Shown piece after piece: positions 1-327 of a DNA stretch of 327 nt. The notes below the pieces were generated by a model. It saw nothing but the letters and a program-made list of their open reading frames with translations, did not search any database and was not told the origin of the DNA. Every line of letters begins with the position of its first letter. Positions within the stretch are counted from its first letter, which is position 1. Where the stretch lies: the NCBI RefSeq assembly GCF_003334355.1, contig NZ_QOWP01000115.1, one strand, 5' to 3'. Source of the DNA: Escherichia coli. Lineage in GTDB: Bacteria; Pseudomonadota; Gammaproteobacteria; Enterobacterales; Enterobacteriaceae. The position numbers and the translations under genes were made by a program.

Positions 1-327
1 TTCAACGGGCGGCCTGACTGCACCATCTCTCCACAGGCAAGAACGGCGTGCCCCGCCGCTAAAATGTTACGAGCGCCGTTTACATCGGCGTTCGCTGTAT
101 ATCCACATACCTGGCATCTGAATTTACTTTGTGACAGGCGGTTCTCTTTCGCTGTATGACCACAGTACGCGCAACGCTGGCTTGTATACGCTGGCGGAAC
201 AGCAAGCACCTGACCGCCACGCCAGAGCTGCTTGTACTCAAGCTGGCGGTGCATTTCATACCAGCCCTGATCCAGTATCGAACGGTTTAAACCTGATTTT
301 GCCCGGACATTGCGCCCCGGCTGGCTG
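1..327 (-). CDS. tnpB: Partial CDS, truncated at both window edges: C-terminal region of a TnpB-type RNA-guided endonuclease (IS200/IS605- or IS607-family accessory protein OrfB). Complete codons span 3-326.
   Basis: Seen in sequence: the reverse-complement frame starting at + strand 326 reads 108 codons with no stop, while the other two minus-strand frames and all three plus-strand frames contain stops. The translation has the TnpB hallmarks in the family order: GW..L.YK, then [11 protein letters not shown], a second C..CG, then the [14 protein letters not shown] RuvC-III motif. Codon usage looks enterobacterial. From unverified memory it closely resembles the E. coli IS609 TnpB (insQ/ydcM-like); this needs a BLAST check. 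Confidence 0.9.
63..92 (-). other. RuvC-III catalytic motif of TnpB ([10 protein letters not shown]), conserved Asp codon (gat) at + strand 84-86
   Basis: Seen in sequence: the reverse complement of 63-92 reads aac gcc gat gta aac ggc gct cgt aac att, i.e. [10 protein letters not shown]. Established knowledge: the third RuvC catalytic residue of TnpB/Cas12 is an Asp in an N-A-D-x-N-(A/G)-A-x-N-I context just downstream of the zinc finger. Confidence 0.8.
105..173 (-). other. Zinc-finger (zinc-ribbon) motif of TnpB, C-x2-C-x15-C-x2-C (CAYCGH ... CQVCGY), all four Cys codons intact
   Basis: Seen in sequence: Cys codons at + strand 171-173, 162-164, 114-116 and 105-107 (minus-strand tgc, tgt, tgc, tgt). 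Established knowledge: TnpB and Cas12 proteins carry a CxxC...CxxC zinc finger inserted between RuvC-II and RuvC-III. Confidence 0.8.

Follow-up and report, generated by a model that had tools for sequence, protein, structure and literature searches.

The 10-bp direct repeat TTCGCTGTAT, found twice in the window (the whole analysed stretch of 327 nucleotides), is very probably a lineage-specific coincidence of amino acids and codons over a conserved zinc-knuckle motif. It would have no function of its own, because Thr-Ala pairs and their ACA GCG codons coincide on a knuckle that is conserved in any case. On its minus strand the window carries the 3' part of insQ, the Escherichia coli TnpB gene of an IS609-like IS200/IS605 element, and thus the zinc finger and RuvC-III region of a well-known RNA-guided nuclease. 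Gene and zinc finger are already known, and the finding is ordinary and matters little.

Translation and homology searches were performed for the identification of the gene. A minus-strand frame, the sole fully open one of the three on that strand, runs through positions 1 to 326 without a stop. The window DNA is 100% identical to the annotated chromosomal insQ of several E. coli strains in RefSeq. The 402-aa InsQ matched the NCBIfam model NF040570 (guided_TnpB) with 378.6 bits (E = 3.9e-113), above the cut-off of 100, and aligned over its full length with the solved ISDra2 TnpB structures 8BF8, 8EXA and 8H1J (E ~4e-55); this alignment matches both CxxCG knuckles and the NADxNA catalytic motif of InsQ. 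A Pfam scan of the 108-residue fragment encoded by the window identified the TNB domain, and weak similarities to other zinc ribbons and to rubredoxin-like domains fell on the same zinc-finger residues. An earlier note, made from the letters of the window, had taken the minus strand as coding and the protein as TnpB, and had placed the repeat copies directly after the two CxxCG knuckles of a zinc finger; the DNA identity and the PF07282 and NF040570 hits bear out the former, translation and the ISDra2 TnpB alignment the latter. The following features could be assigned in the window:

Positions 1 to 326, minus strand: open reading frame, InsQ/TnpB residues 283-390 of 402 aa (translation; 100% DNA identity to annotated insQ).
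Positions 1 to 37, minus strand: start of the probable guide-RNA (omega RNA) scaffold overlapping the insQ 3' end, not part of the repeat (sub-threshold Rfam matches, predicted fold, low synonymous divergence).
Positions 63 to 263, minus strand: Cas12f1-like TNB (zinc-finger) domain, Pfam PF07282 (E = 4.4e-24; model positions 1-60 of 60, fragment residues 22-88).
Positions 84 to 86, minus strand: GAT, D363, third RuvC catalytic residue in the NADxNA motif (aligned to the DRDENA Asp of ISDra2 TnpB).
Positions 91 to 100, minus strand: downstream copy of the repeat (coding direction), tAT ACA GCG AAc = (Y358) T359 A360 (N361), after knuckle 2 and Gly357.
Positions 105 to 116, minus strand: second zinc knuckle, C353-Q-V-C356 (CQVC) (translation; aligned to the second CxxC of ISDra2 TnpB).
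Positions 148 to 157, minus strand: upstream copy of the repeat (coding direction), cAT ACA GCG AAa = (H339) T340 A341 (K342), after knuckle 1 and Gly338.
Positions 162 to 173, minus strand: first zinc knuckle, C334-A-Y-C337 (CAYC) (translation; aligned to the first CxxC of ISDra2 TnpB).

The C4 zinc finger of InsQ lies in the RuvC domain and consists of two CxxC knuckles at a spacing of exactly 19 codons. In an alignment of 61 sequences its four cysteines (C334, C337, C353 and C356) are invariant. The Asp-Glu-Asp triad of the RuvC domain is also present; D183, E267 and D363 are nearly invariant in the same alignment and correspond to the ISDra2 TnpB motifs GVDVG, TEHL and DRDENA. From the published structures we take D361 of ISDra2 TnpB (the DRDENA Asp) and its other aligned acidic residues to be catalytic. 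InsQ and ISDra2 TnpB thus share full-length homology, the TNB zinc-finger domain, the four cysteines and the D-E-D residues. At the knuckles, however, ISDra2 TnpB reads CHDCGFKN and CPNCGETH and has neither the Thr-Ala pairs nor a nucleotide repeat, while InsQ has both; beyond these post-knuckle residues the two proteins differ in nothing of substance. Codon 336 (window 165-167, minus strand) is TAC (Tyr) in the window allele, giving CAYC, while the 13 other distinct InsQ-clade sequences compared carry TGC (Cys), giving CACC or CVCC with an extra cysteine within the first knuckle.

Of 5,426 complete E. coli genomes, 4,902 have copies related to insQ; 4,885 have one that covers at least 80% of the window, and genomes with any match have a median of two matching places. 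In strain 41 (locus L001), insQ sits between ydcL and ydcO. As in the transposon context of TnpB, a Y1 transposase gene adjoins it: a tnpA of the IS200/IS605 family is located directly upstream in divergent orientation, frameshifted and with an internal stop. At L001 1147-2864 insQ is intact beside this tnpA pseudogene, and it looks like a solo TnpB kept at ydcL-ydcO.

The repeat itself is exact at window 91-100 and 148-157 and exceeds every other exact direct repeat of the window in length. On the coding strand both copies read ATACAGCGAA, and translation confirmed the peptides CAYCGHTA and CQVCGYTA given in the earlier note. The copies start 57 nt, i.e. 19 codons, apart and are thus in the same reading frame, and ungapped extension of the match covers 17 nt (91-107 against 148-164) with 15 of 17 positions identical. 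The contexts are TGT GGT CAT ACA GCG AAA (C337-G-H-T-A-K342) and TGT GGA TAT ACA GCG AAC (C356-G-Y-T-A-N361). Each copy begins in the codon after the post-knuckle glycine, whose own codon differs (GGT versus GGA), and the downstream copy ends two residues ahead of the catalytic Asp363. The 10-nt identity requires that CAT and TAT agree in the third base, that Thr and Ala are encoded by ACA and GCG in both copies, and that the Lys and Asn codons have AA in common.

An exact non-overlapping direct repeat of at least 10 nt was present in 4.7% of 5000 dinucleotide-preserving shuffles of the window. Given both hexapeptides, exact enumeration over synonymous codons yielded a probability of 0.043 for an in-register exact run of at least 10 nt and of 0.07 for at least 15 of 18 identical positions, with the same result under the gene's own and under approximate E. 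coli codon usage. These codon-level values are in the upper tail and not compelling, especially after post-hoc selection of the repeat. The repeat is genuine and, for a single window, mildly unusual; a genome-wide scan often meets such repeats by chance. Other short repeats in the window, ACGCTGGC and GCTGGCGG, each present twice (174-181/188-195 and 190-197/242-249), were judged to be at chance level. A third near-copy of the 10-mer in insQ (L001 2358-2367, one mismatch) is in another reading frame (I-Q-R) and was likewise attributed to chance.

To place the motif in the TnpB family, 1.84 billion cluster representatives were scanned in full, giving 33,223 relatives, the best 150 of which were aligned. 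About 140 of these span the region; their identity is 39-61%, except for a few InsQ fragments at 96-97%. Among them the four cysteines are 97-99% conserved over both knuckles (99% for C334 and C337), and D363 is 96% conserved. The residue after the knuckle is Gly in 71% (knuckle 1) and 85% (knuckle 2), followed by His, Tyr or Phe in 76% and 87%, respectively. The next position is V (37%), T (23%) or I (21%) after knuckle 1 and T (24%), E (24%) or S (14%) after knuckle 2, and the one after that S (30%), D (29%) or A (15%) and E (29%), A (26%) or D (11%), respectively. The Thr-Ala dipeptide was found in only 8 of 137 sequences after knuckle 1 and in 13 of 137 after knuckle 2. The same dipeptide occupied both halves in three sequences, all of them InsQ fragments with 96-97% identity, where 1.35 would be expected by chance. 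The motif common to both halves is therefore CxxCG[H/Y/F] and not, as the earlier note had supposed, CxxCGxTA. That note had named a second half-motif that is not conserved as the finding that would make the repeat a chance feature; the knuckle part of this half-motif is conserved and its Thr-Ala is not, and the repeat would thus be largely a chance feature of the lineage. In a distant AT-rich TnpB on a viral contig (L086 8860-8882, minus strand) the second knuckle is CCGHTANADVNA (CGHTANAD); GHTA(N) after a knuckle has therefore arisen independently elsewhere in the family.

These data bear on the proposal that the zinc finger derives from a tandem duplication of a 19-codon knuckle unit, with the 10-nt identity as its remnant. 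Such an origin is consistent with C..CG[H/Y/F] being common to both halves and with the in-register position of the knuckles, whose distance is exactly 57 nt wherever the motif was found. In addition, hhalign of the two 19-residue half-profiles aligned nine columns with 66% probability. These nine of 19 columns, however, comprise only C..CG.., while the other in-register columns are at background (0.00-0.12), so that the halves fail to align beyond the metal-ligand turn; CxxCG knuckles also recur by convergence in unrelated zinc ribbons. Since Thr-Ala in both halves is limited to InsQ-like genes, the nucleotide identity would be young and lineage-specific, whereas a duplication event would have to pre-date the whole TnpB/Cas12 family, both knuckles being present in ISDra2 TnpB and in Cas12f. 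Zinc-ribbon or rubredoxin-type knuckles (CPxCG-like turns) offer a parallel: like InsQ, these domains have two CxxC turns, each followed by Gly, that bind one zinc. The likeness of the InsQ halves would reflect the structural requirement of each knuckle and not common descent, with the residues past the Gly-aromatic pair free to vary.

The DNA of homologues was compared in a locus search built on 13 closer sequences, and a scan of viral contigs yielded 80 loci from relatives with 54-97% identity. The knuckle-to-knuckle spacing was 57 nt in all 81 loci in which the motif could be found (L001-L085, 54-100% identity, 76 of them viral-contig relatives), and the zinc-finger loop thus appears fixed at 19 codons in this subfamily. 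The exact 10-mer pair, by contrast with this spacing, is confined to InsQ-like copies among the 81 loci. Synonymous resampling of the 18-nt segments with each gene's own codon usage provided the expected in-register identity. Outside the InsQ-like clade, where relatives at 40-60% identity carry other residues and codons after the knuckles, 313 identical positions were observed against 316.3 expected (z = -0.47, 37 distinct sequences). The identity between the halves beyond what the amino acids require, for which the earlier note had proposed to look, is therefore absent across these homologues. Within the InsQ-like clade, 121 were observed against 112.2 expected (z = 2.76), a figure based on nine distinct sequences with shared ancestry. 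Because of this shared ancestry the excess would effectively count as one inherited coincidence, although a single past gene-conversion event could also have produced it.

Even within the clade the repeat is broken repeatedly, and the changes affect one copy at a time. In copy 1, ACA is replaced by ACC in seven loci (L002, L008, L009, L013, L017, L018 and L021), GCG by GCA together with AAA by AAG in L028-L032, and Thr by Ile in L037. L022-L026 and L036 combine ACA to ACG in copy 1 with Ala to Glu in copy 2, and L027 has Ala to Thr in copy 2. L003 has Ser for Ala in copy 1 (TS versus TA), and its Thr and Ala codons differ between the copies. Codons 340-342 thus vary synonymously in the InsQ clade (ACA/ACC/ACG, GCG/GCA, AAA/AAG) with no matching change in the other copy, and A360 is replaced by Glu or Thr, with other codons, in clade relatives. 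Synonymous divergence at codons 331-345, which include the first copy, is 0.227 and resembles the rest of the gene (0.2-0.3 gene-wide); at codons 346-360 it is 0.095, below the gene-wide range, a point against coincidence, with few divergent lineages behind this value. Three viral contigs (L045, L060 and L081) carry a TnpB only 67-71% identical to InsQ in the best segment, with both zinc-finger 18-mers nucleotide-identical, which suggests that these genes are mosaic or recombinant.

Taken together, the lineage-specific Thr-Ala, the likeness limited to the metal-binding knuckle, the lack of excess identity and the one-sided substitutions argue that the repeat is not the trace of internal duplication that the earlier note had seen in it, and a duplication origin is highly improbable.

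A second possibility is that one knuckle segment was copied onto the other in the InsQ lineage by gene conversion or concerted evolution, transferring G(H/Y)TA(K/N) together with its codons. The in-clade excess (z 2.76), although its sequences are not independent, would agree with this, as would the similarity of 15/17 nt and the rarity of Thr-Ala in both halves family-wide. On the other hand, the Gly codons (GGT versus GGA) and the His/Tyr codons differ within the tract that would have been copied, and the later changes are all one-sided, which speaks against ongoing homogenisation. More distant relatives (L079 and L085) have CGHTAK in knuckle 1 with TE in knuckle 2, while P0006 and P0073 have CGYTA in knuckle 2 with other knuckle-1 sequences. 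Since these combinations occur, each half seems to have its own history. The coincidence is also unremarkable in number: about 1% of lineages would share the dipeptide and about 4% of those the codons, and among the 33,223 clusters of the family, which amount to tens of thousands of lineages, chance should produce such a repeat somewhere. Gene conversion is accordingly regarded as very unlikely.

Coincidence on a conserved knuckle would account for the repeat as follows. In InsQ, a conserved Gly and then an aromatic residue or His come after each knuckle, which is the usual zinc-knuckle signature. In zinc fingers generally, the knuckle Gly serves the tight turn and the backbone NH-to-sulphur hydrogen bonds, and its role in InsQ is presumably the same. 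In the InsQ lineage Thr-Ala also happens to come after both knuckles, with both pairs happening to use ACA GCG; together with the common -AT of CAT and TAT and the AA- of AAA and AAC this gives ten identical bases. The copies drift apart freely in relatives and, like any short direct repeat, the 10-mers may act as an accidental substrate for slippage or microhomology deletion.

The 10-mers could instead be constrained at the nucleotide level, either as part of a guide (omega) RNA that overlaps the tnpB 3' end or as a site for binding or regulation on one strand or the other. In the Rfam search of L001 three sub-threshold matches were obtained, RAGATH-18 at 2791-2834 (25.4 bits against 44.9), HgcC at 2801-2917 (22.2 against 50) and sot0042 at 2737-2898 (18.9 against 88), which presumably are RNA families linked to TnpB 3' ends. 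The sot0042-like match begins at the last base of the downstream repeat copy, and a 271-nt segment of L001, reaching from the codons of the zinc finger beyond the stop codon of insQ, has a better predicted fold than shuffled versions of it (z -2.67). All these matches, however, are far below the gathering scores, and the stable, well-defined helices are downstream of the repeat (L001 ~2775-2925), while the centroid fold leaves the 10-mers largely unpaired or in weak local pairs. Synonymous divergence is low at codons 376-390 of insQ, and window ~1-37 together with the sequence beyond the window probably forms the InsQ guide RNA scaffold, downstream of the repeat. Fold stability was therefore discarded as a property of the repeat, as it comes from the 3' scaffold, and the sub-threshold families, located downstream, are relevant to the gene and not to the repeat. 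On the window itself Rfam returned one 13-bit match to a viral pseudoknot, which was rejected as chance-level.

No promoter-like or terminator-like sites could be found in the window, and other than the repeats themselves neither the window nor the L001 locus contains a complement of the 10-mer. Close relatives show synonymous variation in the repeat codons, and in many InsQ-clade genes the repeat is lost through synonymous or non-synonymous changes on one side only, unlike a functional DNA repeat. A nucleotide-level role is barely conceivable on these data, and the earlier note was right to attribute the repeat to the encoding of the same residues and not to a regulatory or recombination signal.

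The E. coli plasmid p98191-contig_2 (L004) carries a truncated remnant of insQ that lacks 94 nt in comparison with full copies:

Positions 276-345 of L004 (NZ_CP173599.1, ~60,080-60,150): junction in the truncated insQ pseudogene.

The remnant reads ...GGTGCTGGC TGTGGTCAT ACAGCGAA TGCCGATGTAAAC... at this junction. TGTGGTCAT is the 5' flank of the first copy, and GCCGATGT comes after the second; in the core TGTGGTCAT-ACAGCGAA-TGCCGAT the 5' flank of the first copy is joined to the 3' flank of the second. If two deletions are assumed, one of 37 nt between TGCTGT microhomologies and another of 57 nt between the 10-mers, two fewer mismatches are left than with a single 94-nt deletion, and the junction may thus represent two microhomology deletions, including the 57 nt between the 10-mers; the alternative is one 94-nt deletion with two substitutions. 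At least 128 plasmids carry the identical remnant, which would therefore go back to one event, spread with the plasmid lineage. Short direct repeats are substrates for slipped-strand and microhomology deletion, and the junction is what excision of the 57 nt separating the copies would leave. Such an excision would be accidental rather than functional, and it concerns a single pseudogene lineage that was truncated already.

An allele lacking the 57 nt would be expected to show the junction CATACAGCGAA[C/T]GCCGAT. Among 5,426 E. coli genomes, the top places for a clean 57-nt deletion allele were all normal copies, matching in two pieces that span 177 nt. The junction query gave no perfect one-piece match in these genomes, where lower-ranked imperfect alleles are possible. 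Nor was a 57-nt deletion found in a scan of the viral contigs for the junction pattern; the sole match, in L086, was its ordinary second knuckle CGHTANAD and was rejected. At most, the repeat has served a deletion by accident once, in a copy that was already dead. It is doubtful that the repeat pair and the 6-nt TGCTGT microhomology form a recurrent breakpoint for loss of the zinc finger in InsQ/TnpB or, alternatively, that a single knuckle-to-knuckle conversion made the two Thr-Ala pairs. Loss of the 57 nt alone would stay in frame, and if the breakpoint were recurrent, the coincidence would bias how these nucleases decay on plasmids.

A search of the literature on insQ, IS609 and TnpB found nothing on this zinc finger or repeat. 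No site or element has to be annotated for the conspicuous 10-bp direct repeat in insQ. The repeat can serve as a worked negative control: in-register repeats at fixed codon spacing in zinc-finger genes call for a synonymous-codon null and a comparison of homologues before a duplication or signal is read into them. The sole possible consequence of the repeat for insQ is mutational, i.e. deletion between the copies, and this is generic to any short repeat.
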